Positions 23,704 to 40,527 of a DNA stretch of 64,000 nucleotides are shown here, one piece after another. The notes below the pieces were generated by a model. That model was not told the DNA's origin, did no database searches, and was given only the letters and a program-made list of their open reading frames with translations. Both the position numbers and the translations under genes were made by a program. The stretch comes from an uncultured Fibrobacteria bacterium (GTDB lineage Bacteria; Fibrobacterota; Fibrobacteria; UBA11236), in NCBI GenBank assembly GCA_963716395.1, contig OY970309.1, positions 1,876,402 through 1,940,401 of the forward strand. Reading direction: 5' to 3'. Position 1 is the first letter of the stretch; every line of letters starts with the position of its first letter.

Positions 23704-24795
23704 TTAACCGGGTTGGTTCCGCGGTTGAATTTCGGCGCGCAGGGCCGCGAAGGCTTTCCACACCGTCTCCGCCCGCAAGGTTTTGAGGCATTCCTTGTAA
23801 TTCGGATTGACGCAGCGGTGACCGCAGGGCCGGCAGGGCATGGGTTCAACCTGCACGCACCGCGTCAGCGGCCCGCGCGGTTCCACGTGCCGGGCGTCGG
23901 ACGAGCCGTTGATCCAGAGCACGGGTTTGCCGTAATACCCGGCCATGTGGCCCAAAAAATTGTCGGTGGCCACCACGCCGGCCGCGTTCTGCACCTGGCC
24001 CGCCAGCCGCAACAGCGGTCCGCGCCAAAAACCCACGCGCTGCGCCCAGCGGCTGCGGAAGCGCGCAAACCCGGCGCCGGCGTCAGGGGGATCGAGAATC
24101 AGCAAGGGCAAGCGCGACTCCGTCATTTTTTCCAGCAAGTCGTCCCAATGCTCGAAGGGCCAGTTCTTGGAGTCTTTGCGCGTCCAGCAGGAAAGAATCC
24201 ACGGCGCGGTGACGGTGTCGAGGAGGGGAAAGGAACGGGTCTCGCGGCGCAAACCGGCCGATGACGTCAGCGCGCATTTCTTTTCCCAATTGCGGCGATG
24301 CTCCCAAAACGCCGCGGCCACGGCGGCGTTCTTGTCGGCTTGATGCACGGCCTCGGCCGGCAGGGGAAAGCGATACTGGAAAAACCAGGCGTGCGGCCGT
24401 GCATAGGAGGTCACGCGGCAGGCGCCGGCCACGCGCAGCCAAAAGGCGCTGCGCGGATCGGCATCGAAGTCGAGCGCCCAATATCCCAACGCGCCCCGCA
24501 GCTTGCAGGCCGCCGCCCCGGTGCGCAGAAAAGAGCGCAGTCCCGGCCGCCGGAAAAAGGCGTTGTCGAAGGCCAAGCCCTCCAGCCCCTCGGCCTGGAG
24601 CAGTTCGAGGCAATCGGGACGGCAAACGATTTGCACGCGCACGTGGCTGGCCAAGGTTTTGATCGCCGGCAGCGCCAGATATAAATCGCCGATCATATAA
24701 CTCTGGAAAATCGTGAGCGGCGCAGCGTTGTCGCGCGGTTTTTTCCGTAGCAGCCACAGCCAGGGCGTCAGGGCCACGGCTCCCGCCGCCGCCAT
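23704..24795 (-). CDS. Glycosyltransferase family 9 (LPS heptosyltransferase-like)
   Basis: ORF 23704..24885 begins at TTG; start placed at Met 31; GT9 C-terminal motif (VVATDNFLGHMAGYYGKPVLWINGSSD). Confidence 0.8.
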   Translation of the reverse strand: MAAAGAVALTPWLWLLRKKPRDNAAPLTIFQSYMIGDLYLALPAIKTLASHVRVQIVCRPDCLELLQAEGLEGLAFDNAFFRRPGLRSFLRTGAAACKLRGALGYWALDFDADPRSAFWLRVAGACRVTSYARPHAWFFQYRFPLPAEAVHQADKNAAVAAAFWEHRRNWEKKCALTSSAGLRRETRSFPLLDTVTAPWILSCWTRKDSKNWPFEHWDDLLEKMTESRLPLLILDPPDAGAGFARFRSRWAQRVGFWRGPLLRLAGQVQNAAGVVATDNFLGHMAGYYGKPVLWINGSSDARHVEPRGPLTRCVQVEPMPCRPCGHRCVNPNYKECLKTLRAETVWKAFAALRAEIQPRNQPG

Positions 24796-24993
24796 CCACC
24801 CTGGCCCGCGGCGGCGGGGGAGGTTCGGGTTGTCGGAGGACCAGGGCATCGGCGTAACTTGGATGTTTCGGGTAAAAATAGCCAATCGACCGGGGTCCGA
24901 CGCGGCTTTTACCGGTCCCGCGCGGTTTTTTGCGGGGGGCTGCGTTTTGGCGAACCGGTCTGTCTATTTTGCTGGCCGCAAACCCCGGTCCGC

Positions 24994-26139
24994 ATGCCAG
25001 CCCCAACTTCTTCTGCCCCGCCTTGCGCGCCGCCGCCGGTTGCCCCGACGGTGTTGCTCGTCATTCTCACCGATCTTTCCACGGACCACCGCTGCTTCAA
25101 GTGGGCCAAGAGCCTGCGGCAATGGGGGGAACATCCCGTGATTTATTGCGATCAACCGCGGCATGCGTTGGGCGAAGCCTGGAGCGGCTTCGACGTGCGC
25201 ATTCTGACGCGCCGTTCGCATTTGCAGGAATTCCTTCCGGTATTTGCGGCTTTTTGGCGGCGCCTCGCGCCCGCGCTCTGGCGCACACCGGCCCGGATTT
25301 GGATTGCCCTGGACGCGCCGCCGCTGCTGGGGCTGGCCTTTATCGGCAAGCTGCGGCGGCGCACCGTGATCTACGATGCGCACGAACTGTTCCTGGAAAC
25401 TCCGATGGTCTTGTCACGGCCGGGCCGCCGGATTTTCTGGTGGCTGTGGGAGCAGGGCGGTTTTGCGCTCATTGCCCGCGCCGTCACGGTCAGCCCCCCG
25501 ATTTTGGCGCGCCTGCAGCAACACCATCGGGCGGTGGGGTTTTACCTCTTGCCCAATATGCCCTTTCGCGTTTCCCGACCATCCGAGCCGAATCGCGATG
25601 TACCTCACGGTGAAATACGCTTGATCTTTCAGGGCGGATTGCGCACGGCTTCGGGGTTGCCCGAACTGTTCGCCGCGCTGGCGGAACGACCCGCCTGCCG
25701 CCTGGATATTTACGGCGACGGAGTCGAAGGCGATAACGTGCGCGCCGCCGCCCGGCACGAGCACCTCGGAGAGCGCGTGGCTTTTCACGGAGCCGTTCCC
25801 TTTGAGAGCCTGCCCGCAACTTTGGAGCGGGCCCATCTCGGCGTGCACCTCATGCAACCGGTATGCGGTAGCTTCGCCCTGACCTGGGCCAACAAAATTT
25901 TCGATTACGTGCATGGGCTTTGTCCGGTGCTACTCAGCGACAATCCTGCGCATCAGTCTCTGTTGCATGAGTTCCGCGTCGGCGTCACGGTCGACGCCTT
26001 TTCCACCTCGGCCATCGGTGGCGGGATCGACGCCTTGCTGGCCGGCTACCCCGCTTTTGTCGCGGCTTGCCGCCGGGCCCGCGAGCAATGGCATTGGGAA
26101 GCCTTCGCGGCCAACCTGGGCCCCTTTCTGGGACTATGA
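24994..26139 (+). CDS. Glycosyltransferase (GT-B fold, GT4-like)
   Basis: ORF 24859..26139; start placed at Met 46; C-terminal GT1/GT4-type motifs (FDYVHGLCPVLLSD). Confidence 0.8.
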   Translation: MPAPTSSAPPCAPPPVAPTVLLVILTDLSTDHRCFKWAKSLRQWGEHPVIYCDQPRHALGEAWSGFDVRILTRRSHLQEFLPVFAAFWRRLAPALWRTPARIWIALDAPPLLGLAFIGKLRRRTVIYDAHELFLETPMVLSRPGRRIFWWLWEQGGFALIARAVTVSPPILARLQQHHRAVGFYLLPNMPFRVSRPSEPNRDVPHGEIRLIFQGGLRTASGLPELFAALAERPACRLDIYGDGVEGDNVRAAARHEHLGERVAFHGAVPFESLPATLERAHLGVHLMQPVCGSFALTWANKIFDYVHGLCPVLLSDNPAHQSLLHEFRVGVTVDAFSTSAIGGGIDALLAGYPAFVAACRRAREQWHWEAFAANLGPFLGL

Positions 26140-27605
26140 GCGAAACTCCGGGGTCGTTGGGACGCGCCGCCGGATCGGCCTTGCGCTGGAACTCCGTCGG
26201 CGTCGGGGTATCCATGGTGTCGCAATTCGTGCAGTTGCTGGTGCTGGCGCGCCTTCTGGCTCCGCGTGAATTCGGATTGGCGGCATCGGCTCTGGCCGTT
26301 GCCGGGTTTGCGCAGGGCTTCACCGATTTGGGGCTTGGCAATGCCCTGGTCCAGCACGGCGAAGTCGACAACCCGCTTTGGTCCAACGCGTGGCGCGCTT
26401 GCGCCGGCACCGGATTGATTCTGGCTGCGGCGCTTTTCGCCTCGGCACCGGCCTGGGCCGCGCTGCTGCGCTTACCGGGACTGGCCCCGGTATTGGGCCT
26501 GGCAGCGCTGGCTTTGCCCTTCGCCGGGCCGGCCAGCGTGTACCAGGCCAAAGCGCAACGGGAGCTTCGCTTCGCGCGCTTGGCGACCGCCGAAATCGTC
26601 GCCGCCCTCTTCTCCCTGGCGGCGGCTCTGGCCTGGGTGGCCTGGCGCCGCGATGCCCTGGCCGTGGTGGCGGGGCAAATCACTTTGACCTCCGTGCGCT
26701 GCCTGGCCTTGGCGCCGGCCTCGCGCATCGCGCCCCTGCGCGGACCCTGGCGTTGGTCCGATCTGCGCCCCGTCGCCCGTTTCGGCGGCTTTCAATTGGG
26801 CGAACGCGCACTGAACGCCGCGGCCGGCAATCTCGATCGCCTACTGGTGGCCCGCTGGCTTGGCGCCGCGGCCGCGGGTTATTACACCTTGGGATCGCAA
26901 ATCGCCTTGCGGCCCATGGTGCTGTTGGCACCGTTCGCCTTCCGCACCTTGTTCCCGCTGTGGTCGCGGTTGCAGGACGACCGCCGCCGCATCGCGGTTT
27001 CTTTCATCCACTCCGTATCCCTTCTGTGCCTGTTGGCCGCGGGGGTATACGCCCTGCTCGGCGGTCTGGCCCCCGCGTTGGTGCGGGTTGTGCTTGGTCC
27101 GGGATGGGAACCCGTATCACCCGTGTTACGCATTCTGGCGGGCCTCGGCTGGATTTGGACCGCCTCGCAACCCTTGGCCAGCGCCACCCTGGCCCTTGGC
27201 CGCGCGCGCGCCAGCTTTTGGCTCAACGTGCTGGTGCTGGCCACCAATGCCGCCGGGGTGCTGGTGGGGTTGCATTTCGGCCTCACGGGTGCGGCCTGGG
27301 GCATTTTGGCCGCGGCCGCGGCACTGCTCCCGCTCGACGTGATGCTTGTCCGCCGCTGGTTGCAGATTCCGGCGCGGCAATTTTTGGCGGCCGCCGCCCG
27401 GCCCTTGCCCGCGGCCCTGGCGGCGGGGATTGCCATCGCCAACCTGATCGCGTTGCCGTGGTGGTCAGCCTGGCCGAGATTCGCGGCGCTGGCGGTGCAG
27501 GGGATTTTAGCCGTCGCTGTCTATGCGGCGGCGTCCCGGGTATTTCATCGCCGCGGCTGGCCTGAGGCTTGGGTTGAAATGAAGACAAAAATTTTTCGTG
27601 TTTAA
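26136..27605 (+). CDS. Polysaccharide/oligosaccharide flippase (Wzx, MOP superfamily)
   Basis: ORF 26067..27605; start placed at Met 24, overlapping the GT stop as ATGA; polytopic membrane protein with Wzx-like topology. Confidence 0.8.
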   Translation: MSETPGSLGRAAGSALRWNSVGVGVSMVSQFVQLLVLARLLAPREFGLAASALAVAGFAQGFTDLGLGNALVQHGEVDNPLWSNAWRACAGTGLILAAALFASAPAWAALLRLPGLAPVLGLAALALPFAGPASVYQAKAQRELRFARLATAEIVAALFSLAAALAWVAWRRDALAVVAGQITLTSVRCLALAPASRIAPLRGPWRWSDLRPVARFGGFQLGERALNAAAGNLDRLLVARWLGAAAAGYYTLGSQIALRPMVLLAPFAFRTLFPLWSRLQDDRRRIAVSFIHSVSLLCLLAAGVYALLGGLAPALVRVVLGPGWEPVSPVLRILAGLGWIWTASQPLASATLALGRARASFWLNVLVLATNAAGVLVGLHFGLTGAAWGILAAAAALLPLDVMLVRRWLQIPARQFLAAAARPLPAALAAGIAIANLIALPWWSAWPRFAALAVQGILAVAVYAAASRVFHRRGWPEAWVEMKTKIFRV

Positions 27606-27651: not shown

Positions 27652-30351
27652 TTAATGCGCGTTCAACACCAAGCGGCGCCATACATGGCCGTCTGGTTGG
27701 CGTAATTGCAAGACCACCAAACCCTCGGACAGGCCGTGTAGGTCCACCGAGCTGCCGTCGGAGGCAGGCTGCAAGATCAAGCTGCTAACGCCGTGGCCGT
27801 TGATGGGGGTGACCGTCAATTGCGCCGCTTGCGACAGTCCAAAAAGACGGAAACGGCCGTTGCCCAGGTTTTGCAGGACAAGGTCCTTCGCCGCAGACGA
27901 CGGCCGGACGCCCGCATTCCCCGGTAAAATTTGAAAGACGTGATCGCTGAGGTCACGGGTACGCCCGAAATACTCATACACGGTGACCAGGCAGCGGTTT
28001 GAAACCAAGGATTTTCCATCCAAAGAATCGGGCAACTGGAAGGCGAAGCGGCCCCAATCGGCATCGCCGACGCGCACCGAACTGGTGCGGGTGAGGGGAA
28101 TCCAACTCGCGCCGCTATCCACGGAAAGCTCGATGCCAACCGAAAGCACCCACGACGTGTCGGCGGTCCAACGCACAATCAGGGAATCGCCGACTCGATA
28201 TTGCTCGCCCCCGTTGGGCGCATTCACCTGCACGGGTGTGGGCGCATCGCTGTAGGCTTCGATCGCGGCCAAGCCATAACCGCCGCCGTCGGCCGCGCTG
28301 AGCGAGATGCCGAGTCCGTTGCTGTCGGATACCGTGACATCCGTCTCAAAAATCATTGCCCCGATGGCACCCGCGGGCTTGGCCGGCGCCGCGAAGGGCG
28401 CTCCGATGGTTTGACCTTCGAGTCCCACGCTCAAACTTGAGGTTGCCTTCGCCGACGCATCGTTCAAGCTGGTGAAATGCAGACGCACGTGATAGCGGTT
28501 GTTGGGTACCGGCAGGGTCAAACCGGAAGGGCTGTTGCGATAGAGGCGGTAGGCGACCGCGGGAGCCGGGTCGATGACCGAATCCAGTTGCACGATGGTG
28601 TCGCTTTGCCGCACCAGCGGCATCGTACCCAGGAGGGAGGTATCCGGCAGCCAGCCCGCACCCAGGGCGGGTTCAGCGGCATAGCGCCATACGCCTTTGG
28701 CCACCACCACCGAAGTGGTGCACACCACGGCCCCTTCAGACCCGTAAGCGGAAAAGGTGTGGAAGACCTGGCTCGAATCCGCGGTGGCTTGTCCGCCGGA
28801 GGTGAGATGCAAACCGGAAGAACCGGTCCAGGTCAAGGGCGATGCCAAAGTCCAGGGCCGTCCGATTTGATCCTTTCCATCCGCCGCGAGCTGCACCGTG
28901 TCGCCCGGCCGGAGCACGGCCGTATGCGGACGCGGCACCAGGGTGGTGAGCGCCGGATTGGCATACAGGAAGGTTACGGTGTAAGCCGCTGAATCGACGC
29001 CCTGGCCATAGCTCAAAACCACACGGGCCCTATAACTTCCCAGGGGCAGATTTTTGCGGGTCACGGTGTTGACCACCTGCGGGGCATTGGTGCCATTGGC
29101 GAGAATCGTGACCCGCAGCCAGGTGGTGTCGGAATCGGGATAGGCGGCCGTCAACGGCGGCAAAACGCCATCGCCGGCGTTGGATACATGCGTCGTGTCG
29201 GGTCCAGGGTCGGCGCTGTCTTGCGGCAGCGCGGTGAACAGGAAGGCATCGCGATCCAGGCGAAGAGTGGCCGGGGTTACGCCGTTTTTGACCCACAGAT
29301 GCGGGGTCAGATTCACCCCGTCGCCTTCCAACACCCGCAGCAGGCGGCTGGGACCGGAGGTATCGATGCGCACGATGTAGAGATCGCCCGAATCGGCGAT
29401 ATCGACGTCTTTGGATCCGGTGGCCGTGAAATAGTCTTCGTCGGTGGACCATTCGGGGTTACCCCAGAATAGATTGCCGCTGCTGTCGTTGTTGCAGTTG
29501 TCACCGGGAATGCCCATGTACCAGAAGGGATGATCGATGTCGGGATCATTCCAACCCCGGATGAAAATAGCCTTGTGGTTGTCGTAAACCTTGCCCTCCA
29601 CCGTGCCTTGCCCCGAGGTCAAATACATCATGCGGTCCTGGCGCGTGGGATCGGTCGACATGCTGATCGAGGCGTTGCAACCCGACAGCCATCCCGAGGT
29701 CAGCCAGTTTTTCGAGGCCAGGTAGGCCGTATCGATTCGGGTGGAATCGAGTTCGTACATGCCGGTGCTGTGGTGTGACGAAGCGCCCCACCGCCCGTCG
29801 CGCGAGCGACCCGTCGACATCAGATAGGGCACCAGCATCGTGGCCGGCCCCAATGTGTCATGGCCGTTGACGATGCGCCGGATATAGGTGCCCCCGCTGG
29901 CGGGCGGCCAGGTGGGGTCATTGATGTCGCCCAAGGTGTAGGTCACGTATTCGTTCCCAGTGCCGGGTTGCACCCACCAATGGGGCTCCAACGATTCGCC
30001 GCTGGGACGATCCACGCTGCCGCAGTAAACCGCGTATTCGGTTTGCGAGTTCTCGACCAGGTCGCGCACGAACACGCTATCGAAGCGTTCGTAGAGCACG
30101 CGCGTTCCGTCCCAACTGATCATGGGGTTGGCGGCCTCGGTCGTGGCCACCCGGTGTTCCACCAGTACGCTGTCGTCAAAGTCGAGGTAATAAATCTGGT
30201 AGGTGTAGTCCCGGATGAACGCGACTTTGCCGGTGCGGCCGCCCAAAAAGGCGCGCACCTCCGGGCCGGTGACCAGGGCCTTGGCCTCCGCGGGCCGCCA
30301 GACCGACAGCATCGCCGCACCCACGGCGGCGGCCCACCCGAAAAATTTCAC
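27652..30351 (-). CDS. Large secreted multidomain protein (beta-propeller-like N-region, Ig-like repeats, possible C-terminal sorting domain)
   Basis: ORF 27652..30423; start placed at GTG (MKFFGWAAAVGAAMLSVWRPAEA signal peptide) overlapping the SGNH stop as GTGA; beta-rich repeats; C-terminal ~80 aa resemble a Por/T9SS-type sorting domain. Confidence 0.6.
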   Translation of the reverse strand: MKFFGWAAAVGAAMLSVWRPAEAKALVTGPEVRAFLGGRTGKVAFIRDYTYQIYYLDFDDSVLVEHRVATTEAANPMISWDGTRVLYERFDSVFVRDLVENSQTEYAVYCGSVDRPSGESLEPHWWVQPGTGNEYVTYTLGDINDPTWPPASGGTYIRRIVNGHDTLGPATMLVPYLMSTGRSRDGRWGASSHHSTGMYELDSTRIDTAYLASKNWLTSGWLSGCNASISMSTDPTRQDRMMYLTSGQGTVEGKVYDNHKAIFIRGWNDPDIDHPFWYMGIPGDNCNNDSSGNLFWGNPEWSTDEDYFTATGSKDVDIADSGDLYIVRIDTSGPSRLLRVLEGDGVNLTPHLWVKNGVTPATLRLDRDAFLFTALPQDSADPGPDTTHVSNAGDGVLPPLTAAYPDSDTTWLRVTILANGTNAPQVVNTVTRKNLPLGSYRARVVLSYGQGVDSAAYTVTFLYANPALTTLVPRPHTAVLRPGDTVQLAADGKDQIGRPWTLASPLTWTGSSGLHLTSGGQATADSSQVFHTFSAYGSEGAVVCTTSVVVAKGVWRYAAEPALGAGWLPDTSLLGTMPLVRQSDTIVQLDSVIDPAPAVAYRLYRNSPSGLTLPVPNNRYHVRLHFTSLNDASAKATSSLSVGLEGQTIGAPFAAPAKPAGAIGAMIFETDVTVSDSNGLGISLSAADGGGYGLAAIEAYSDAPTPVQVNAPNGGEQYRVGDSLIVRWTADTSWVLSVGIELSVDSGASWIPLTRTSSVRVGDADWGRFAFQLPDSLDGKSLVSNRCLVTVYEYFGRTRDLSDHVFQILPGNAGVRPSSAAKDLVLQNLGNGRFRLFGLSQAAQLTVTPINGHGVSSLILQPASDGSSVDLHGLSEGLVVLQLRQPDGHVWRRLVLNAH

Positions 30352-31055
30352 CGGAGCACCGCTGCGATGGAATCGGCCAGAATCGAGGCGATGGCTGCAT
30401 GGCCGTGATTGCCGGGATGCCATTGGATGGCAGGATCGGCATAGCCCGAGTTATAAGCGTAGTTGGCGGAGTCTTTGGCGAGGGCCGTGATATCGACGAG
30501 ATGGACATCGTCAATTCCCTGCATGGCCTGGAGAACCGCGGCCGTGCGGAGGGCTGTCAGGGTCGTGTCGTTCCATACCGACAGGCAGAAAATGGGGAAG
30601 TCGCCGCCTTGCCGCAGGGCCCACAAAAGTTCGCGATATTGAAAGAGAAGTTGGCCGGTTTCCACTTCGAGGTCATTCGAATTCTCGCCCAATTGCACCA
30701 CCACCCAGCGCGGATGGGCTTGGGTCAGGTCCCAAGTCACATTGTGAAAATGTTCGTCGATGGGGCCGTCGCAAACCTCGCAGTCGCGGCGGCCATAGAA
30801 GATGCCCGCGGCGACGCCGAGTGGCTGCAAATCGCGGATGGTGGAATGGACGTAATCGCTGTCCGGAACCGTGGCTGCCATGCCGTTCTCTTGGCTCCAA
30901 CCGATGGACGGCAGCGAATCGTGCAAGGTGATGCTATTACCCAAAAACAGCACATTCGGCGGTTGTGTTTGCGTGTTGAACATGCAGGCCTGCAGGATCG
31001 AAATCCCGATCCAGGCAACCCCCCCACAACTTAAGATACGCAAGGGCCACCTCAT
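30348..31055 (-). CDS. SGNH/GDSL-family hydrolase
   Basis: ORF 30348..31217; start placed at Met 55 (signal peptide MRWPLRILSCGGVAWIGISILQAC); GDS(L)-like block LFLGNSIT and C-terminal HPGNHGH. Confidence 0.75.
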   Translation of the reverse strand: MRWPLRILSCGGVAWIGISILQACMFNTQTQPPNVLFLGNSITLHDSLPSIGWSQENGMAATVPDSDYVHSTIRDLQPLGVAAGIFYGRRDCEVCDGPIDEHFHNVTWDLTQAHPRWVVVQLGENSNDLEVETGQLLFQYRELLWALRQGGDFPIFCLSVWNDTTLTALRTAAVLQAMQGIDDVHLVDITALAKDSANYAYNSGYADPAIQWHPGNHGHAAIASILADSIAAVLR

Positions 31056-31130: not shown

Positions 31131-33083
31131 ATGTGCGGCATCTCCGGCTATTTCGCCTTTGCCGGTCCGGTGGAAGATCCATCGGCCTTGCAACGCATGA
31201 ACCGGGCCGTGGCCCATCGCGGGCCCGACGGCGAAGGTTTGTTTCTGTTACAACGCGCCACGGGCCAGGCGCGCGCGTTTTGCGGAACGCGCACGCCCAT
31301 GACACCGCCCGAACTCGGCCCCTGCGCATCGGATTTTCGCTTCGCACATGATGTGGCCCTGGGCCATCGCCGCTTCGCCATCCTGGATTTGAGTCCGGGC
31401 GGGCATCAACCGCTGGTCGGCGACGGCGGCGCGATGGCGCTGTGCTTCAATGGGGAGATTTACAACTATGTGGAACTACGCGCCGAATTGGAAAAGTCGG
31501 GCGCGATCTTCCGCACGCGCGGCGACGCTGAAGTGCTGCTGCAAGCCTACCGCCATTGGGGCGAAGCGTGCTTCGAGCGCCTTGCCGGTTTTTGGGCCCT
31601 GGCTTTGTGGGACCAAAAACACGGTCTTTTGCTGGCGCGCGACCGGCTGGGCAAGGCGCCGCTGTATCATACATGTTACGGGGGGCGCCGGTGGTGGAGT
31701 TCGGAAATCAAGGGGCTGTTGGCCGCCGCGGGCCGCCGCGCCTTCGCGGTCCGGCCGCAGGCCGCGGCGTGGTTCGCGCGCGCGGGGTTGCGCGACTTCG
31801 GGGGCGAAACTTTTTTCCAGGGCATCCGCACCTTTCCCGCGGCCAGCTTTGCCTGGGTGCGTGAAGACGGCGACTTCGCGCTGCGGCGCTTTTGGCGGCC
31901 GCCCGCCGCGCGGCTGCGCCCTTCCGAAATCTCGGCAGCCGAGGCGGCGGTTGAATTGCGCCAGCGCCTCTTCGCGGCCGTGTCGCTGCGGCTGCGCGCC
32001 GATGCGCCCGTGGGGTTGGAATTAAGCGGCGGTCTCGACAGCTCGACCCTGGCGGCTTTCGCGGCCCGCGCCGCCGAACCGTCGGCGCCGCCTTTTGCGG
32101 CCTTCACCGTCGGCTTTCCCGACACAGCCTGGAATGAAGCGCCCTTTGCCCGGCAAGTTCTCGCGTGTTGGCCTGGGCGTTTCACCCCGCGCGAACTTGT
32201 GCCCGACGCGCACGCCGTGCTGCGAGGCCTGGCCGCCTTTCACACGCACATGGATGAACCCATCCATTCCCCCAACATGGTGATCAACCAGGAAATTTGG
32301 CGGCGCATGGCCGCCGAGGGTATCCGCGTGAGTTTGAACGGAGCGGGCGGCGACGAAGTGTTCGCCGGCTACGGCAGCGAATATTTCGGGCCCTTTGTGC
32401 GCGGATTGATCGAACGGGGCCGCTTCGCCACCGCGGCGCGCGAGTTCGTCCGCTGCAGCGAACGCCCGCCGCATTCGGCGGCGGCGTGGCTGCGACTGGC
32501 CTGGATGTTGCTGCCAGAAGGTTTCCGCCGCGGCGTGCGTCCGCCTTTTCCCGCCCAAGAGATCGACCCCCTGCGGTGGCCGCGCGGCGCCTGGCCCGAA
32601 GCTTCTCCCGAGTTCGCGCAGCGGCTGCTGGATCATCTCGGCGATTACAAAATGAATTACTGGCTACGATCGGGAAACACTTCGTGCATGGGCGTGCCGC
32701 TCGAAGTGCGGCTGCCCCTGCTCGATCACCGCGTGGTGGAATGGGCCTGCCGGTTGCCGCCGGAATATTTAATCCGCGACGGCTGGCTCAAATGGATTTT
32801 GCGCCGGGCCGTCGAACCCTGGCTGCCGCCCGAGGTCACTTGGCGGCGGGTCAAAATGGGATTTCCCTTTCCTTTGGCCGCATGGCTGCGAACGGTCAAG
32901 CCGGCTTTGATGGCCTTGGGCCGGGGCGACGCGCCCGACTTTCTGGATCGCGGACGATTGTTCCGCCATTATGATTTCCTGGCCCATCGGTATCCGGCGT
33001 ATTTGTGGCGCTGCGTGTCGGTGCTGTTGTGGTGGAAGGTCGCGGTGAACGGCGAAACGCCGGTTCTCGACGCCGCGACGTGA
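31131..33083 (+). CDS. asnB: Asparagine synthase (glutamine-hydrolysing), AsnB family
   Basis: 650 aa; N-terminal MCGI glutaminase nucleophile; synthetase PP-loop region (LSGGLDSS). Confidence 0.9.
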   Translation: MCGISGYFAFAGPVEDPSALQRMNRAVAHRGPDGEGLFLLQRATGQARAFCGTRTPMTPPELGPCASDFRFAHDVALGHRRFAILDLSPGGHQPLVGDGGAMALCFNGEIYNYVELRAELEKSGAIFRTRGDAEVLLQAYRHWGEACFERLAGFWALALWDQKHGLLLARDRLGKAPLYHTCYGGRRWWSSEIKGLLAAAGRRAFAVRPQAAAWFARAGLRDFGGETFFQGIRTFPAASFAWVREDGDFALRRFWRPPAARLRPSEISAAEAAVELRQRLFAAVSLRLRADAPVGLELSGGLDSSTLAAFAARAAEPSAPPFAAFTVGFPDTAWNEAPFARQVLACWPGRFTPRELVPDAHAVLRGLAAFHTHMDEPIHSPNMVINQEIWRRMAAEGIRVSLNGAGGDEVFAGYGSEYFGPFVRGLIERGRFATAAREFVRCSERPPHSAAAWLRLAWMLLPEGFRRGVRPPFPAQEIDPLRWPRGAWPEASPEFAQRLLDHLGDYKMNYWLRSGNTSCMGVPLEVRLPLLDHRVVEWACRLPPEYLIRDGWLKWILRRAVEPWLPPEVTWRRVKMGFPFPLAAWLRTVKPALMALGRGDAPDFLDRGRLFRHYDFLAHRYPAYLWRCVSVLLWWKVAVNGETPVLDAAT

Positions 33084-33097: not shown

Positions 33098-34651
33098 TTA
33101 TTCCACCGCAAAAATCCGGTAATCAAAAACATTTTGTTGCCAGGGTAATGCGGAAGGTTTGTCCTTCCCCGTGTAAATCGCTTCAAAGAGGGGGGAAAGT
33201 TTTTGGGCGTCTGGATTTAATACCACAAAACGAACTCCACGACGCTTACAGGCGGAAATGAAATCCGCCATCGAATCCACGGGAAACTCCGGAAACTCCC
33301 GATTGTACAAATACGTTCCCCAACGCGGCGCGCCCCCATTGAAATACGGTATTTGATCGGGTAAAGTGCGGAAATACAAATCGAAGTCGCTGGTAAAAAC
33401 CTGAGTCGCTTTCCGCACTCCTAGGTCGCGCAGGTCGGCCTCAATGGCATGAAAGTCCCGTTGCAGGGTAGAGCGCTTCTCAAGCAAACGAAAATCCCGC
33501 AGGAGATTCACCCCAAGCATCAAGGCCACCAGAGTCCAGGCGCCCCAGGTCACCCACGCCGTCCTCCGATGGGAGAGAACATTCCCGTCGAATCGGTATT
33601 CCCATGCCGTCAGCATCACCATTCCCAAGGCCAGCATGGATAGTGGCAACGCCAGTAAAATTTGCCTTCCACTCGTGGTCGCGGAAAACATCAGAAAATA
33701 AATTGCCTCCCATGCCGCCACGATCCGCATCATCCATTTCCGCTGCGGGTGACGAACCCACAGAGCGGCGATGAGGGGCGGCCCATAGGCCTGTTTAAAA
33801 GACCATAGGGCCGTCAGATATTTTTTTAGGAATAACGCCGGATCCCCGGCGATGATGGCTCCAACCGAACCGGGCAATTTCAAATCCAAGGTGCGATGCC
33901 AGTTGATTCCATACATCAAGTCGTACACATTCATGGGACCGAATTGGGTTTCCAACAGGCCATGACCGCTGGCGAGGTTCACGGCCCATTGCAGGCTATA
34001 GACCGTGAACACACCCGCCGAAACCGTGGCCATCGTTTTCCAAAGTTGGGGACGTATCACCACAATCGCCAGCACCAACATGCCATCGGCCACCAAAACA
34101 TGGTAACGGAACAACGCCCCCAAACCCAGCAGGAATCCCGCCGCCAGGAAACCCCGGCTGGGTGCGGCCTGGGGCGAATCGAAGAGCCGAGAGAAAATCA
34201 GCGCGATCCCGGCGGTGAAAAAAAACAAGGCCGCCGGATCGCCGCCCCCCGCGTTCATGTAATGGAAGAACTGCACGAACAGCGAAAGTGACACCAAGGA
34301 CAGCAAGGCGAATCCCGGCGGCAGGATTTTACGGAACAGCCAACCCGAAACCGCGAGGGTCAGGGTTCCGAAGGCGACATTGACCAGAATGGCGGGACCC
34401 GCGGGATTTCCATCGCCCAGGATGAGTTTGAGCAGCAAGCCGCATCCCACCGGGTATTGCGGGTTAAACCACGATTGCCGATCCGCCCAATGCAAATGCC
34501 GGGCGTAAAACACCGTGTCCCAAAAATCATTGTGGTATTGCTGGAAATCCAAACCCCAATTCAATGCCAACGACCCAAGCGCGAAACACAGGGGAACGAT
34601 TAACCAGCCATAGCACAAAATGCCACGAGGTCTGCTGGCAGGACTATGCAA
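33098..34651 (-). CDS. Polytopic membrane glycosyltransferase (ArnT/PMT-like, GT39/GT83-type), putative
   Basis: ORF 33098..34846; about 10 TM segments followed by a soluble C-terminal domain; start tentatively placed at in-frame TTG overlapping the GT2 stop. Confidence 0.55.
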   Translation of the reverse strand: MHSPASRPRGILCYGWLIVPLCFALGSLALNWGLDFQQYHNDFWDTVFYARHLHWADRQSWFNPQYPVGCGLLLKLILGDGNPAGPAILVNVAFGTLTLAVSGWLFRKILPPGFALLSLVSLSLFVQFFHYMNAGGGDPAALFFFTAGIALIFSRLFDSPQAAPSRGFLAAGFLLGLGALFRYHVLVADGMLVLAIVVIRPQLWKTMATVSAGVFTVYSLQWAVNLASGHGLLETQFGPMNVYDLMYGINWHRTLDLKLPGSVGAIIAGDPALFLKKYLTALWSFKQAYGPPLIAALWVRHPQRKWMMRIVAAWEAIYFLMFSATTSGRQILLALPLSMLALGMVMLTAWEYRFDGNVLSHRRTAWVTWGAWTLVALMLGVNLLRDFRLLEKRSTLQRDFHAIEADLRDLGVRKATQVFTSDFDLYFRTLPDQIPYFNGGAPRWGTYLYNREFPEFPVDSMADFISACKRRGVRFVVLNPDAQKLSPLFEAIYTGKDKPSALPWQQNVFDYRIFAVE

Positions 34652-35405
34652 GGCGCGGGGGCCTTTCCCGGAATAAACGGGATCGCCGCCAACCCCGCCG
34701 GTGCAACAGGTAAACGATTGAGGTCGCCACCACGCCCAATCCGTAGTAAACGCTGGCGCCGAATTTAATGGTAGACGCTTCCGGAAAATACTTGGTGGGG
34801 CAGGTGATTTCGGCGATGGAAAAACCGCGCTGGAAAATCTGGACAATCATCTGGTTGTCGAACAGAAACCCATTGGAATTGGCATGGTAATTCACGGAGG
34901 CCAGTACTTCCTTGGAATAAGCCCGGTACCCGGTGTGGTACTCCGATAGTTTTTGCCCTAAGCAAAGGTTTTGCAGCAAAGTGAGGAACCGATTGGCCGC
35001 ATACTTGTAGCGCGGCATTCCGCCCCGCAAGGCCTGGCCGCCGAGAATACGCGAACCAAAGACCACGGGGTACACGCCGTTTGCAATTACGCTGGCCATG
35101 GCCGACACCAGTTTCGGGGTGTATTGGTAATCGGGGTGGATCATGATGACCATATCCGCGCCCAGTTCCAACGCCTTGTCATAGCACGTTTTTTGGTTGC
35201 CACCGTATCCGCGTCGATGATCATGCACGACGACATGTCGGATCCCCAACGTCACCGCAAGCGCGGAGGTTTCATCCACGCTCGCGTCGTCCACCAAGAC
35301 CACGTCGTCGACGATATCGAAGGGCAATTCTCGGTAAGTTTTTTCCAGGGTGGCCGCCGCGTTCAGCGCGGGCAAAACCACTACCAATTTTTTACCGAGG
35401 AGCAT
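34644..35405 (-). CDS. GT2 polyprenol-phosphate glycosyltransferase (ArnC/DPM1/GtrB-like)
   Basis: 253 aa; GT-A signature (VVLVDDASVDET...DADMVIMIHPDYQYTP). Confidence 0.9.
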   Translation of the reverse strand: MLLGKKLVVVLPALNAAATLEKTYRELPFDIVDDVVLVDDASVDETSALAVTLGIRHVVVHDHRRGYGGNQKTCYDKALELGADMVIMIHPDYQYTPKLVSAMASVIANGVYPVVFGSRILGGQALRGGMPRYKYAANRFLTLLQNLCLGQKLSEYHTGYRAYSKEVLASVNYHANSNGFLFDNQMIVQIFQRGFSIAEITCPTKYFPEASTIKFGASVYYGLGVVATSIVYLLHRRGWRRSRLFRERPPRLA

Positions 35406-35590: not shown

Positions 35591-36359
35591 TCATGGCTTG
35601 CGCGCCACGAAAATCCAGGCCTCGCCGTCGTCTTCATCCCCAGCGTCGAGGCGGCAGCGTTCGATCTCTTCGCGGCCCAGTTGCTCTGCATAGCGCACGG
35701 CTTCGACCCCGAAGCCCGCGGCACGCACCCGATCCGTGAAATCACTTCCGTAAAAACGCACGTGATCGAATTGTCCGAAACGCCGATGCCGCGCGGCGGG
35801 ATCGACGACAGAGGCGTCTTCGTCGGTGGGGCCTGTGCGCAGCGGCACCTGTATGACTGCCGCGCCGCCCGGACGCAAGACGCGCCGCAGCTGGCGCAGC
35901 GCCCCGCGGTCATCGGGTATGTGTTCCAGCACGTGGCTGCACAAAATCAGATCGAAGCGTTCCGATTGCATGCCCAGGTGCGCAATGTCGACGGCAACGC
36001 TCCCGCGACCGGGTTCGCGATCCGCGGCGACATAGCGCAGTGCTCGGCAAAGATTCCAACCGGTGCCGCAGGCCGGGTTCCGGGGCGAAGTGCAGAACCG
36101 ACACGGGCTTGGATCCCAACGCCATTTCGCGATCCAGGAACAACCACAAAAGACGGTGCCGTTCCAAAGACAGGCAACCCGGACACATGGCTTCGTCGCG
36201 GGGCGGATCGCCTTTGGGCAGAAAGCGGCGAAAGCGACCGCCGCAAACCGGGCAATGGCGATGATGCCCCCGCAGCCAAAGACCGCGCAAACGGTAATAG
36301 GCGGGTCGCAGACAGGCTTTCCAGGGGCGCACTTGGGGCGATGGGGCCGGGTTGAACAA
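35591..36359 (-). pseudogene. Class I SAM-dependent methyltransferase with N-terminal zinc ribbon; apparent frameshift
   Basis: N-terminal part (Cys pairs, VLHFAPEPGLRHRL) reads in ORF 35910..36359; C-terminal part (RYVAADRE...FDLILCSHVLEHIPDD...RVLRPGG) reads in the frame of ORF 35591..35971; span is 769 nt (3n+1); frames switch near 36030-36050. Confidence 0.6.
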
Positions 36360-36425
36360 GTCTGGGAAAGTTACAATCAGGGTGTTTGCGCGGGCGGGGA
36401 ACGGCCATGCGCGCGAGGTAGGGTT

Positions 36426-37562
36426 TTAACCCGCCCCGGTAAATTGTTCCAGGGGAACCGCCTCTACGCGGTTCGAAATCGCGTAACGCTTTTCACCCGG
36501 ATAAACGACCCATAATTCATCGAGCTTTAAATCGTGCCGCGCAATGCGCAGGGAGGGCGTCAAGGTCGGCGCATCCGCGCGTTTGCATTCCACGCCGATG
36601 CGTTTGCCCCGCCGGAACAAAAGCAAATCCAATTTCGCGCCGTTATGGGTGGCCCAAAAATAGGTCTCGTCCGGCGCGCGGGCCTTGAGGATTTCCTCAA
36701 CCGCGTATCCTTCCCAGGAGGCGCCCACCTTGGGGTGCATTTCCAAATCCCGCCGCGTGCCGATGCCGAGCAGCGCGTGCAGCAGCCCGCTGTCGCGGAC
36801 GTAAATTTTCGGCGCCTTGACCTGCCGCTTTCCGAGGTTTTCGAACCAAGGCGGAAGCTGGCGCACCATGAACACGTCGGTCAGGAGATCCAGATAGCGC
36901 CGGATGGTCGTTTCGCCCAACCCCATGGCGCGCGCCAATTCGGCGCCGTTCCAGATCCGGCCGTGGTAATGCGCCAACATGTTCCAGAAACGCCGCAACG
37001 TGGCGGCGGGAATGGTGACGCCGAGCTGGGGCATGTCCCGCTCCAGGAAGGTCTGGATGAATTGGTTTCTCCATGCCAACGAATCGGCCTCCGAACGCGC
37101 CGTATACGCCAGGGGGTAACCTCCCCGTAGCCAATGCCGGGGCTGGGCCTTGGCCCCCAAATCGCCCAGTCGAAAGCCCTCCAAGGTCAGGGTTTCCATA
37201 CGCCCGGCCAGGGATTCGGAGCTTTGTTTCAGCAATGCAGGCGTGGCGCTGCCGAGGATGAGAAAACGCGCGGGCAGGGGCCGGCGATCCGCCAGTACGC
37301 GCAGAAGGGGAAACAACTCGGGGCGGCGCTGGATTTCATCCAGCACCACGAGACCCTTGAGGGGGCGCAACGCGGTGTCGGGCTCCTGCAGGCGGGCGAG
37401 GCTGCGCGGATCTTCCAGGTCGAAGTAATTCAGCGATGTCGGCGGAACCAGGGAGCGGACCAAGGTGGTTTTACCGCTTTGCCGGGGGCCCAGCAAGGCC
37501 ACCACGCGGGCGCGTTTCAGGGCGGAGCGAAGGCGCGCCAGATCGGCGGGACGGGTGAGCAT
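36426..37562 (-). CDS. AAA+ ATPase (DUF4143/COG1373-type)
   Basis: ORF 36426..37937; start placed at Met 126 (MLTRPADLARLRSALKRARVVALLGPRQSGKTTL, Walker A); Walker B-like VVLDEIQ. Confidence 0.8.
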   Translation of the reverse strand: MLTRPADLARLRSALKRARVVALLGPRQSGKTTLVRSLVPPTSLNYFDLEDPRSLARLQEPDTALRPLKGLVVLDEIQRRPELFPLLRVLADRRPLPARFLILGSATPALLKQSSESLAGRMETLTLEGFRLGDLGAKAQPRHWLRGGYPLAYTARSEADSLAWRNQFIQTFLERDMPQLGVTIPAATLRRFWNMLAHYHGRIWNGAELARAMGLGETTIRRYLDLLTDVFMVRQLPPWFENLGKRQVKAPKIYVRDSGLLHALLGIGTRRDLEMHPKVGASWEGYAVEEILKARAPDETYFWATHNGAKLDLLLFRRGKRIGVECKRADAPTLTPSLRIARHDLKLDELWVVYPGEKRYAISNRVEAVPLEQFTGAG

Positions 37563-37569
37563 GATGACA

Positions 37570-37618
37570 AGATACCATATACCATGAAATTCCACCACTT
37601 GTAGGATGAATTTCATGG
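37570..37618. promoter_or_regulatory. Tandem ATACCAT repeat plus 11-bp perfect inverted repeat upstream of the AAA+ ATPase gene
   Basis: ATACCAT-ATACCAT followed by CCATGAAATTC-N15-GAATTTCATGG, 20-56 bp upstream of the ATPase start codon. Confidence 0.4.
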
Positions 37619-37712
37619 TGTCAAAAATACCCTTCCCGATCCCGAAGCGCTTTTCCCCCAAGGCGTAAATCCATCGCCTGCGGTGGGGGGAACTCCCCGG
37701 ATCGGGGCGGGG

Positions 37713-37766
37713 CCTTTTCCAAAAAGGATCGAGACCCTTTTTGCGGTGCCGGCGTTGCAAAAAGGG
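37713..37766. promoter_or_regulatory. Paired palindromes (CCTTTTCC-AAAAAGG and CCCTTTTTGC-N12-GCAAAAAGGG) upstream of the aminotransferase gene
   Basis: 10-bp perfect inverted repeat ending about 28 bp before the GTG start, preceded by a smaller palindrome with the same core; a similar CTTTTTCC-N11-GGAAAAA site lies at about 59241-59267. Confidence 0.4.
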
Positions 37767-37794
37767 TATTTTACGCCTTCGCAAAGGAAGCACC

Positions 37795-38985
37795 GTGAGC
37801 AAACCGGCCCTGGACGGCGGCAAACCCGTGCGGTCCCGCAAAAATTTTCTGGTGTTCGGCGCGCCGCAAATCGGGCCCGAAGAGATCGCGGGCGTGGTCG
37901 ATTCGCTGCGCCGCCGGTGGATCGGCACCGGCCCCAAGGTCGCCGCCTTCGAGCAGGCCTTCGCGGCCTACAAAGGCGCGATTGCCGTGGCCGTCAACTC
38001 TGGCACCGCGGCCCTGCATTTGTCGATTCTGTCTCTGGGCATCGGCCCCGGCGACGAAGTCATCACCACGCCCATGACTTTTTGCGCCACGGTCAACGCC
38101 ATTCTGCACGCCGGCGCACAACCGGTACTGGCCGACTGCGATCCGGTTTCGCTCAATCTCGATCCCGCGCACGTCGAGCGCAAAATCACCCGGCGCACCA
38201 AGGCCGTTTTGCCCGTGCATTTCGCCGGCCGCGCCTGCGACATGCGCGCCCTGATGCGCCTGGCCAAGGCGCATCGACTGCGCGTGGTCGAAGATTGCGC
38301 CCATGCCCTTGAAACCGAAACCATGGGCCGCAAGGCCGGCACCTTCGGCGATCTGGGCTGCTTCAGTTTCTACGTCACGAAAAACCTGACCACGGCCGAA
38401 GGCGGCATGGTGATCACCGCGCGGCAAAACCTGGCCGATCGCATCAAGCGCCTGGCCTTGCACGGCCTGTCTCAGGACGCCTGGAAGCGGTTCTCCGATG
38501 CGGGCTATGTGCATTACGACGTGGTCGAACCCGGATACAAATACAACATGACCGACTTGCAGGCCGCCATCGGCCTGCCGCAATTGCGTCGCCTCGAGTC
38601 GAATTGGAAGCGCCGCCGCGCGGTCTGGAACCGGTATCAGGAGGCTTTCGCCGATTTGCCGGTGGAGCTTCCGGCCGAAGCGCCGTCCGACGAACGGCAT
38701 GCCTACCATCTGTACACGCCCCGGGTAACGCGCGGGTTTCGCCGGAGCCGCGACTGGGTGTTGGCCGCCCTGACGGCCGAAGGTATCGGCGTGGGCGTAC
38801 ATTACCGCGCTTTATGCGACCACCCGTATTATCGGCGCGTCTTGGGCTGGAAGCGCCGCGACTTTCCGGTGGCGGCCGATATCGGGGAACGCACCGTGTC
38901 GCTGCCGCTGTCGGCGGCACTCACCGCACGCGACGTAGACGACGTCATCGCGGCTTTCCGCAAAGTGATGCGGGCCGGAGCCTGA
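37795..38985 (+). CDS. DegT/DnrJ/EryC1/StrS-family PLP-dependent sugar aminotransferase (ArnB/WecE-like)
   Basis: ORF 37741..38985; start placed at GTG behind AAGGAAG; conserved aminotransferase blocks incl. FSFYVTKNLTTAEGG (PLP-Lys region). Confidence 0.9.
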   Translation: MSKPALDGGKPVRSRKNFLVFGAPQIGPEEIAGVVDSLRRRWIGTGPKVAAFEQAFAAYKGAIAVAVNSGTAALHLSILSLGIGPGDEVITTPMTFCATVNAILHAGAQPVLADCDPVSLNLDPAHVERKITRRTKAVLPVHFAGRACDMRALMRLAKAHRLRVVEDCAHALETETMGRKAGTFGDLGCFSFYVTKNLTTAEGGMVITARQNLADRIKRLALHGLSQDAWKRFSDAGYVHYDVVEPGYKYNMTDLQAAIGLPQLRRLESNWKRRRAVWNRYQEAFADLPVELPAEAPSDERHAYHLYTPRVTRGFRRSRDWVLAALTAEGIGVGVHYRALCDHPYYRRVLGWKRRDFPVAADIGERTVSLPLSAALTARDVDDVIAAFRKVMRAGA

Positions 38986-40526: not shown

Positions 40527-40527
40527 C

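Follow-up and report, generated by a model that had tools for sequence, protein, structure and literature searches.

The described systems with which the locus analyzed here can best be compared include the three-component systems (GtrB/GtrA/Gtr*), in which a GT2 polyprenyl-phosphate sugar synthase gene lies beside a GT-C gene, and among them the published pentofuranose system is served by a flippase of the MOP superfamily (Kelly et al. 2024, PMC11127046). A second is the Arn pathway, which provides lipid A L-Ara4N, and a third the Wzx/Wzy-dependent O-antigen/EPS clusters, of which Wzx, GT4, DegT and AsnB-type amidotransferase genes are typical. Further comparison systems are actinobacterial Ppm1/Pmt, in protein O-mannosylation, and PpgS/Rv3779, in GalN addition. 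We analyzed a stretch of 64 kb from an uncultured Fibrobacteria bacterium (the window), and consider it somewhat more probable than otherwise that its glycan locus is a mosaic, consisting of a conserved Fibrobacteria backbone and an inserted, portable GT2–GT-C cassette that acts outside the cytoplasm to modify an envelope glycan, a lipid or a protein.

The cassette is like the three-component systems in the adjacency of its two genes, in that part of its GT-C family recurs with Wzx-type glycan clusters, and in that a flippase of the MOP superfamily could supply the third component, as it does in the pentofuranose system (PMC11127046). It is unlike them in that it contains no GtrA/SMR-type flippase gene (no GtrA/ArnE/F-type flippase was found in the window by tblastn and Pfam), its GT2 is short and DPM1-like, lacking the pair of C-terminal TM helices that ArnC has, and its GT-C falls in a small, distinct family, the window protein having no Pfam match of its own. 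GtrB also carries two C-terminal TM helices. With the Arn pathway the locus shares an ArnB-like aminotransferase, a GT2 and a GT-C of ArnT-like fold within 5 kb, together with nearby LPS-core-type genes (GT9, HldE). However, the 64 kb encode no ArnA, ArnD or ArnE/F and no sugar dehydratase, the GT-C has no sequence-level ArnT membership, and the genes are on opposite strands and came to lie together through an insertion that the nearest relatives lack. The actinobacterial systems belong to a different phylum, and scores for them were far under the family cut-offs (PpgS, 50 versus 370 bits). The typical genes of Wzx/Wzy-dependent clusters are present and the backbone is conserved in relatives, but in the window we found no initiating phosphoglycosyltransferase, Wzy polymerase, chain-length regulator or nucleotide-sugar dehydratase, and the cluster is too small for a complete O-antigen locus.

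Table 1. Features of the glycan locus and its surroundings (positions in the window).
Feature	Position	Strand	Evidence or remark
GT9-family glycosyltransferase	23704..24885	-	PF01075, E 2e-10; divergent from GT4
GT4-family glycosyltransferase	24859..26139	+	Glycos_transf_1, E 1e-6 (weak)
Wzx/MOP-family flippase	26136..27605	+	Polysacc_synt_3, E 3e-55
Secreted 899-aa all-beta protein	27652..30351	-	signal peptide after GTG start
SGNH/GDSL-type hydrolase	30348..31055	-	Lipase_GDSL_2; longest ORF reaches 31217
AsnB-type glutamine amidotransferase	31131..33083	+	TIGR01536, 349 bits vs cut-off 267; GATase_7 + Asn_synthase
GT-C-fold polytopic membrane glycosyltransferase (transferase of the cassette)	33098..34651	-	confident fold
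DPM1/AglJ/PpgS-like GT2, putative polyprenyl-phosphate sugar synthase	34644..35405	-	PF00535
Zinc-ribbon class I SAM methyltransferase, split	35591..36359	-	1-nt frameshift near 36040
AAA_14 + DUF4143 ATPase, 378 aa	36426..37562	-	DUF4143, E 2e-44; AAA_14, E 3e-22
DegT-family ArnB-like sugar aminotransferase	37795..38985	+	PF01041, E 3e-120
MFS transporter	38996..40183	+	MFS_1, E 9e-25; starts 10 nt after DegT
Phd/YefM antitoxin + PIN toxin pair	40215..40974	+	variable slot between DegT-MFS and purB
dnaE / FemAB-like acetyltransferase junction	50398..50401	.	convergent 4-nt overlap; cassette site of relatives, empty here

Gene families were assigned by Pfam/NCBIfam profile search (Table 1), and most of the assignments made in a preliminary description of this DNA were upheld. 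These included the GT4 transferase, the Wzx flippase (247 bits to the MOP flippase model NF007773, under its 273 cut-off), AsnB, the DegT-type aminotransferase, the polytopic transferase, the SGNH hydrolase and the secreted protein of about 900 aa coupled to it by GTGA. The GT9 heptosyltransferase stood as a GT9 protein, with the heptosyltransferase I/II equivalog models giving only ~31 bits versus cut-offs of 134-185. HldE is encoded nearby. An ATGA overlap had been ascribed to the polytopic transferase and the GT2; it is instead GT4 and Wzx that are coupled in this way, as read from the sequence at 26136-26139, and the cassette genes overlap by 8 nt, the GT2 stop TAG and the GT-C TTG start lying within TTGCATAG. 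The TTG start agrees with database protein P0001. The zinc-ribbon methyltransferase proved recognisable in both its parts, but the CxxC...CxxC part and the C-terminal Methyltransf_23/11 part are in different frames, which reflects either a pseudogene or an assembly error. The gene list itself was incomplete, as the ATPase between the methyltransferase and DegT had been left out.

The backbone order, DUF4423 - lipoprotein - GT9(-) / GT4-Wzx ... AsnB-DegT ... purB, is kept in Fibrobacteria chromosomes. GT9 orthologs occupy the same position at 54% identity in the two closest syntenic relatives (loci L046 and L047) and at 42% in a third locus, L014; for GT4, the coordinates of which are those of the longest ORF with a true start probably further downstream, the corresponding values were 64-66% and 46%. 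AsnB orthologs (61-63% identity) lie immediately 5' of DegT in L046/L047, where DegT itself is 79-83% identical to the window protein, whose 396-aa call is identical to database protein P0165. The DegT-MFS pair is common to the window and locus L048, in which the MFS ortholog (63% identity) directly follows DegT and precedes a CDP-alcohol phosphatidyltransferase gene. In the toxin-antitoxin pair beyond it, the antitoxin matched PhdYeFM_antitox under the gathering score (E 1e-5) and the toxin matched PIN (E 4e-10). The backbone most likely serves to assemble, and then flip, a short envelope glycan that is lipid-linked and contains an aminated, perhaps amidated, sugar.

Two insertions interrupt this backbone in the window. 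The first comprises the 899-aa protein and the SGNH hydrolase, a lineage-specific insertion that is separate from the cassette and whose slot is occupied by a DSBA gene in L046/L047. The start of the 899-aa gene overlaps the SGNH stop as GGTGA at 30348-30351, and the protein matched no Pfam/NCBIfam family at a threshold of 0.01, had no relative in any fetched locus and gave an unusable single-sequence AF2 model (pLDDT 35). Pfam support for the SGNH hydrolase was weak (E 1e-4, 23 bits versus a gathering score of 32.9), with GNS(I) and C-terminal HP(G)N blocks readable in the translation; its start is likely M55, which would give a lipoprotein signal ending ILQAC, and it is a probable lipoprotein. 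The second is a 4.7-kb minus-strand block in the AsnB-DegT spacer that holds the ATPase, the frameshifted methyltransferase and the GT2 and GT-C genes. Since AsnB and DegT adjoin in L046 and L047, in flanks syntenic with the window, the cassette of the window arrived in this insertion. The ATPase has no ortholog among the related loci. A methyltransferase gene lies between GT2 and GT-C in L001 and L014, and its orthology with that of the window was rejected (28% over 99 aa). Like the SGNH and 899-aa genes, those of the methyltransferase and ATPase are insertions specific to this lineage rather than members of a pathway common to relatives; the earlier suggestion that methylation or SGNH-dependent acylation may modify the amino sugar was not supported.

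The portability of the cassette is apparent from its placement in relatives. The GT2 gene is upstream of the GT-C gene in six of six loci with a GT-C of at least 46% identity (L001, L004, L005, L014, L017 and L035), the two overlapping as ATGA in L004. The pair is downstream of dnaE in four (L001, L004, L005 and, up to the contig end, L035), and a convergent FemAB-like gene is downstream of the pair in five (all but L035), so that L001, L004 and L005 read dnaE-GT2-(MT)-GT-C-/AcT6. In the window, dnaE (46412-50401) adjoins the Acetyltransf_6 gene (50398-51378) directly, and the pair beside DegT is the only copy. The GC contents of GT-C (54.6%) and GT2 (55.5%) are lower than those of their neighbours (62-68%), which is a weak sign of foreign origin because the pairs of relatives are low in GC too. 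Wzx-like genes adjoin or are near family members in L014, L019, L023, L025 and L051.

The GT2 was described previously as ArnC-like, and of this only its resemblance to the polyprenyl/dolichyl-phosphate sugar synthase type was retained: its nearest curated families are all of that type, the best NCBIfam matches being AglJ, Dol-P-hexose transferase and PpgS (all under cut-off) and the best PDB match P. furiosus DPMS (5mlz). Likeness to ArnC was rejected given no ArnC model match, 21% identity and the lack of a C-terminal TM hairpin; HPDYQYTP of the GT2 aligned with DADLQNPP of ArnC. Its top 120 homologs (66-74% identity) span the Fibrobacterota-Chlorobiota-Bacteroidota (FCB) group, with 64-73% identity to proteins of Bacteroidia, Chlorobiales and Chitinispirillaceae, representing three phyla. 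In a survey of three contexts of this wider family, the GT2 was stand-alone in two and had an aminotransferase within 6 kb in none. This conservation without an aminotransferase favours a common sugar over a locus-specific amino sugar, contrary to the lipid-linked amino sugar proposed earlier, although the colinearity of DegT-GT2-MT-GT-C in L014, with tiny gaps, speaks the other way. The GT-C has a confident AF2 model, an acidic motif (HNDFWD) conserved after TM1 and, within the first outer loop, the invariant residues N41-D42. Its fold is that of Pmt4/ArnT/AglB, and as ArnT and AglB score nearly equal to Pmt4, the fold does not discriminate among the three.

An Arn-like path independent of formylation, in which the DegT UDP-amino sugar passes via GT2 to polyprenyl phosphate and via GT-C to lipid A/core or another glycan, and in which methylation or amidation may decorate the amino sugar, is in our judgment unlikely. 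It draws on a DegT closest among solved structures to ArnB (1mdo, 296 bits, versus 235 for perosamine synthetase) and with 41% identity to E. coli ArnB across the full length, on ArnT as the top Foldseek match of the GT-C, and on GT9 and HldE, which point to the LPS core. Yet DegT scored equally with the PseC and ArnB models (~344 bits each), under cut-offs of 423 and 631, and no keto-sugar-making enzyme (ArnA-CTD/SDR dehydratase type) is encoded within the 64 kb, nor did tblastn with E. coli ArnA and ArnD find either there (best E 0.02-0.2), in agreement with the earlier description. The insertion of the cassette right beside DegT, as in L014, gives two genomes with this arrangement, seemingly from separate events, and could indicate a functional tie to the aminotransferase. 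Against this, the nearest syntenic relatives carry DegT without GT2/GT-C beside it, and assembly GCA_900299345.1 has the cassette behind dnaE (L001) and DegT elsewhere, in an operon with APH, MFS and CDP-alcohol phosphatidyltransferase genes (L048). Further, DegT is opposite in strand to the cassette, 2.4 kb off, and co-directional with MFS; the trio is therefore no operon. Of the Arn-like trio, an ArnB-like DegT and a GT2 coupled to a GT-C stand, but as a juxtaposition and not a conserved unit.

We regard as less probable still a PMT/Ppm1-like protein O-glycosylation, with the GT2 making polyprenyl-P-hexose (e.g. mannose) and periplasmic or secreted proteins receiving the sugar on Ser/Thr through the GT-C. 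Consistent with it, 14 of 42 relatives match Pfam PMT_2, the best PDB match of the GT2 is a Dol-P-Man synthase, and the GT2 has no TM hairpin; the DPM1-type architecture is short, ~250 aa. The cassette also has no dedicated flippase, and none is known for actinobacterial Ppm1/Pmt either. In addition, a 2025 review reported that for Bacteroidota-type O-glycosylation neither the OTase nor the core-glycan enzymes are known, and that Fibrobacterota share its sequon enrichment (PMC12871550). However, Pmt4 scored barely above ArnT and AglB, the GT-C family is tiny with named members all from Fibrobacterota whereas the GT2 is FCB-wide, GT-C copies of close genomes share only 46-53% identity, a level more in keeping with variable glycan acceptors, and family members recur by Wzx/AsnB-type glycan genes. 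That the block is rearrangement debris adding nothing to the glycan locus is very improbable: the frameshift, the orphan ATPase, the nearby VapBC-like pair and the low GC would fit, but GT2 and GT-C have intact, full-length frames, no invariant residue of the family is missing (the window protein being itself the first row of the family alignment, A1), the model is confident, the start/stop overlap is preserved, and with the dnaE site empty the pair is the only copy within the window.

In the mosaic that we favour, the GT2 would use a nucleotide sugar to charge polyprenyl phosphate with a single sugar on the cytoplasmic side, the resulting lipid-sugar would be flipped, with the nearby MOP/Wzx protein as a candidate flippase, and the GT-C would transfer the sugar to an acceptor at the periplasmic face. 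As the sugar transferred, a common hexose or a HexNAc would be more likely than an amino sugar made by DegT, and the acceptor candidates are the Wzx-flipped glycan or the LPS core first and periplasmic proteins second. The locus only looks like the Arn (aminoarabinose) pathway; the mechanism is well known, and this example of it uncharacterised.

The genes between 18 and 51 kb of the window (GC ~62%) were mapped by combining Pfam and NCBIfam scans with a search for reading frames rich in GC at the third position, and their positions are collected in the table below. This map largely agrees with the gene list of the preliminary description, including the GTGA coupling of the gene for the 899-aa protein to the SGNH gene, and adds an AAA_14/DUF4143 gene that had been overlooked there and was found by Pfam. 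The ATGA overlap that had been placed at the polytopic gene and the GT2 gene actually belongs to GT4 and Wzx; the GT2 and polytopic genes overlap by 8 nt (TTGCATAG), and the start of the polytopic gene at that overlap agrees with a 517-aa database protein. The zinc-ribbon SAM methyltransferase gene listed earlier is present, but it is split by a 1-nt frameshift near 36040, a position taken from reading the two frames rather than from a homolog, and after manual rejoining the Pfam alignment was restricted to the part downstream of the junction. The site (36000-36080) lacks a homopolymer, and the gene may be either a pseudogene or the product of an assembly error. Right after its stop codon is a 17-nt inverted repeat with a 10-nt loop, which is not a canonical intrinsic terminator because no T-run follows. 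Downstream of the Phd and PIN genes the order is purB, argB, asd, a gene for a 627-aa protein, dnaE, the FemAB-like Acetyltransf_6 gene and divIVA. The Phd/YefM-like antitoxin (a weak match, below the Pfam gathering score) and the PIN-domain toxin make up a VapBC-type pair in a variable slot between DegT-MFS and purB, where relatives have a DCC1-like or a CDP-alcohol phosphatidyltransferase gene. No tRNA genes or Rfam families were found in the 64-kb window.

Features of the 18-51 kb region and their positions in the window
Feature	Position (nt)	Strand	Remarks
HldE	18163-19608	+	
Unknown protein	20239-21117	+	292 aa
DUF4423	21247-22146	+	
Lipoprotein-like	22143-23483	+	446 aa
GT9	23704-24885	-	
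GT4	24859-26139	+	
Wzx/MOP flippase	26136-27605	+	Polysacc_synt_3, E 3e-55; NF007773, 247 bits, just below the cut-off of 273
Secreted protein	27652-30351	-	899 aa
SGNH lipoprotein	30348-31055	-	
AsnB	31131-33083	+	
Polytopic protein (predicted GT-C)	33098-34651	-	
GT2	34644-35405	-	
Inverted repeat	35542-35585	-	
Zn-ribbon methyltransferase	35591-36359	-	frameshifted
AAA_14+DUF4143 ATPase	36426-37562	-	
DegT	37795-38985	+	
MFS	38996-40183	+	
Phd+PIN pair	40215-40974	+	
dnaE	46412-50401	+	
FemAB-like Acetyltransf_6	50398-51378	-	

The polytopic protein had no Pfam match, and its sole NCBIfam match, to the LA_3751/LA_3752 family, was weak (E 1e-4). Its GT-C fold was established at the level of a predicted structure: the AlphaFold model derived from an alignment of 42 family sequences was confident (pLDDT 93.5, pTM 0.92) and has a polytopic N-terminal domain of GT-C architecture, and its top Foldseek match was ArnT (E 3e-6, TM 0.53, 13% identity), with STT3, AftA, DPY19, Pmt4 and PglB ranked below. 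In GT-C enzymes the catalytic acidic residues sit just after the first transmembrane helix (TM1), and conserved acidic residues in the first extracytoplasmic loop, a hallmark of these enzymes, are found here: among the 42 sequences N41 and D42 never vary and D45 is conserved in at least 90%, and in the model all three lie just past TM1 (helix 11-33), where a helix spanning residues 41-51 begins. These residues would be on the extracytoplasmic side, given that the N-terminus is positive-inside. The earlier designation of an ArnT/PMT-like transferase holds for the fold; at the level of sequence the window protein gave no match to the GT83 family of ArnT (Pfam PMT/PMT_2), and its assignment to ArnT, PMT or OST by sequence is not supported. 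Weak Pfam PMT_2 matches occurred in 14 of the 42 family members. Database searches indicate that the family is small: when 1.84 billion representatives were searched exhaustively with a profile, just 662 proteins reached E<=1e-3 and 158 of them E<=1e-30, a word-indexed search returned only 44 relatives, those with names being from Chitinispirillaceae, and a genome scan returned 12 loci. Nearly all of these loci carry the labels Fibrobacteria, Fibrobacter or Chitinivibrionales/Chitinispirillaceae, and one has an unlikely 'Bifidobacterium' MAG label.

As judged by sequence, the nearest characterised relatives of the GT2 are polyprenyl- or dolichyl-phosphate sugar synthases. Its best curated NCBIfam matches were AglJ, a haloarchaeal dolichyl-phosphate hexose transferase and PpgS, all far below the cut-offs, and its closest solved structure is the P. 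furiosus Dol-P-Man synthase. The proposal that it is ArnC-like was not borne out: no ArnC model was among its NCBIfam matches, and it is only 21% identical to E. coli ArnC by blastp. In an alignment of the two, HPDYQYTP stands opposite DADLQNPP of ArnC and the match stops short of the transmembrane hairpin of ArnC; the GT2 has one amphipathic helix at its C-terminus and lacks those two transmembrane helices. More than 8000 database proteins match it at E<=1e-10, and the best 120 of these, from Chlorobiales, Chloroherpetonaceae, Bacteroidia, Flavobacteriales and Chitinispirillaceae, all share 66-74% identity with it. In the fetched loci L039-L045, this family of ~250-aa proteins shares 60-73% identity across Bacteroidia, Flavobacteriales, Chlorobiales and Fibrobacterota. 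In view of the fact that conservation is so high across phyla, the GT2 probably handles a common nucleotide sugar; our literature search found no assigned function for it. Gene contexts were sampled in one member each of the Bacteroidia, where the homolog stands alone amid housekeeping genes, the Chlorobiales, where it is 3' of a PlsC-type acyltransferase and a CN-hydrolase, and the Chitinispirillaceae; in two of the three it is a stand-alone gene in housekeeping surroundings, and in none was there an aminotransferase within 6 kb. In the Chitinispirillaceae MAG (L044, 5351-10397) the GT2 gene is coupled by 4 nt to a PAP2 phosphatase gene, and 2 kb away is a PMT/PMT_2 gene that is truly ArnT-like (E 1e-17 to E. 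coli ArnT), a layout that calls to mind lipid A being dephosphorylated and then glycosylated.

Comparison of the window proteins with 40-odd related loci by tblastn indicates that GT2 and GT-C form a movable cassette. A GT2 gene was directly upstream of the GT-C gene in each of the six loci where GT-C identity to the window protein is 46% or more (L001, L004, L005, L014, L017 and L035). The cassette is 3' of dnaE in L001, L004, L005 and L035, a convergent FemAB-like gene is downstream of it in L001, L004, L005, L014 and L017, and in L001, L004 and L005 it is exactly between these two genes; in L035 the contig ends after dnaE-GT2-GT-C. In the window, dnaE and the FemAB-like gene converge with a 4-nt overlap (50398-50401), and this direct contact means that the usual cassette site is empty. 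There are two GT2 subtypes, the widespread one in the window, L004, L005 and L035, and a second in L001 and L014, the members of which share 77% identity with each other and 43-45% with the window GT2; in those two loci an intact methyltransferase gene, not orthologous to the broken one of the window, is between GT2 and GT-C. The GT-Cs adjoining GT2s share only 46-53% identity. Between L001 and L014 the coupled GT-Cs are only 46% identical, against 77% for the GT2s, and the transferase appears to diversify much faster than the donor synthase.

The backbone into which the cassette has been relocated is evident from the two closest syntenic relatives, L046 and L047, which have the order unknown - DUF4423 - unknown - GT9(-) - GT4 - Wzx - [DSBA(-)] - AsnB - DegT - [DCC1-like(-)] - purB and DegT proteins 79-83% identical to that of the window. 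Because AsnB and DegT are direct neighbors in both, without GT2 or GT-C, the block at 33098-37620 is an insertion into the AsnB-DegT spacer. The 899-aa/SGNH pair occupies the slot held by DSBA in these relatives. The GC of GT2 and GT-C is 7-12 points below that of their neighbors, and a comparable third-position GC dip was seen in the cassettes of relatives. A search of 27-41 kb identified no target-site duplication or terminal inverted repeats, and the only repeats around the block were short matches of chance quality. The locus is thus a mosaic of a conserved Fibrobacteria glycan backbone (GT9 | GT4-Wzx-AsnB-DegT), the translocated cassette and lineage-specific insertions. The 899-aa protein is secreted, all-beta and translationally coupled to the SGNH lipoprotein (27652-31055); it matched no Pfam or NCBIfam family at a threshold of 0.01, its single-sequence AlphaFold model had a pLDDT of 35, and no homolog of the pair was present in any fetched locus.

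The aminotransferase, GT2 and polytopic transferase had been grouped as an Arn-like trio. In Arn, ArnB is the UDP-4-keto-pentose aminotransferase, ArnA combines a formyltransferase with a UDP-GlcA decarboxylase and ArnD is the deformylase. Proteins of the arn operon as annotated in E. coli K-12 served as tblastn queries against the 64-kb window, and ArnB matched DegT (41% identity over 384 aa, E 1e-84), for which it is also the best PDB match; DegT scored 344 bits on both the ArnB model NF008658 (cut-off 631) and the PseC model, below both cut-offs. There were no matches for ArnC, ArnA, ArnD, ArnE or ArnF (best E values 0.02 for ArnA and 0.2 for ArnD), and ArnT reached E 0.003 over 49 residues. 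ArnA- and ArnD-type Pfam domains were also absent among the scanned ORFs, in keeping with the earlier remark that both are missing, and since the ArnA C-terminal domain matched nothing there is no detectable SDR-type keto-sugar-forming enzyme in the 64 kb. Unlike the co-directional Arn operon, DegT is on the opposite strand to GT2 and GT-C with two genes between. The likeness to Arn is therefore one of shared logic, a lipid-linked sugar handed to a GT-C, with family-level resemblance that is weak everywhere but in the aminotransferase. In the light of L046 and L047 the trio is a juxtaposition, and from the content of the 64 kb we do not regard the locus as a variant Arn pathway. The preliminary description was confirmed in part as an observation and supported in part as an interpretation.

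We conclude that the locus is probably a polyprenyl-phosphate-dependent GT-C glycosylation system, which is a known kind. The GT2 would attach one sugar, probably a common one, to polyprenyl phosphate, the product would then be flipped, and the GT-C would transfer the sugar on the periplasmic side; the conserved translational coupling to a DPM1-like GT2 suggests that the donor may be polyprenyl-phosphate-linked. This scheme matches three-component periplasmic glycan modification, in which a GT2 adjoins the GT-C, as the gene order here shows for enzymes of predicted activity. The ORFs in and around the cassette include no GtrA/SMR-type small flippase, and the sole flippase candidate is the Wzx/MOP gene 5.5 kb away; a MOP-superfamily flippase is used in one published three-component variant (PMC11127046). 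Wzx-like genes adjoin or are near family members in L014, L019, L023, L025 and L051. With GT9 and HldE nearby, we favor a Wzx-flipped glycan or the LPS core as the acceptor. The literature that we searched held nothing specific on the GT2/GT-C pair, Fibrobacter LPS glycosyltransferases or Bacteroidota polyprenol/GT-C systems.

The amino-sugar route of the preliminary description, in which DegT would supply the transferred sugar, is kept alive by L014, where DegT, GT2, a methyltransferase and GT-C are colinear, and by the fact that the cassette has landed beside DegT twice, in L014 and in the window; however, DegT has variable flanks, occupied by different genes in each relative, and we gave this double juxtaposition less weight as a sign of functional linkage. 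In GCA_900299345.1 the cassette is 3' of dnaE (L001) and DegT is elsewhere (L048, 8173-12925), in the row inositol-monophosphatase-like - APH - DegT - MFS - CDP-alcohol phosphatidyltransferase. These flanking genes hint that DegT may act in a pathway other than LPS, such as one for lipid head-groups, and the DegT-MFS pair is common to this Fibrobacteria-like genome and the window (37795-40183). A standard O-antigen cluster was rejected: the window shares a Wzx gene with Wzx/Wzy O-antigen/EPS loci but lacks nucleotide-sugar enzymes, and Pfam detected no initiating phosphoglycosyltransferase, Wzy polymerase or chain-length regulator among ~45 large ORFs of ~100 aa or more, which cover the window but for a few gaps. 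That the inserted block is inert debris is unlikely, as the GT2 and GT-C reading frames are intact and conserved.

As a long shot, we speculate that the FCB-wide, highly conserved DPM1-like GT2 supplies a lipid-linked hexose to the first step of general protein O-glycosylation in Bacteroidota and Fibrobacterota, with GT-Cs such as that of the window being the missing protein O-hexosyltransferases; the route would then be PMT-like and would not use an en-bloc OTase. If the glycosylation system is as we propose, extracytoplasmic glycosylation gains an uncharacterised GT-C family, found by name only in Fibrobacterota, with a partner GT2 that is very widely conserved in Bacteroidota, Chlorobiota and Fibrobacterota. 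Because mere juxtaposition can produce an 'Arn-like trio', gene content alone is no sufficient ground for deducing lipid A aminoarabinose chemistry of the resistance type. Since the cassette is movable and can land in an LPS/glycan cluster, it offers this poorly studied phylum a plausible way to vary its surface glycans, and the uncharacterised GT2, conserved across the FCB group, is the more intriguing lead and may be the more rewarding target.
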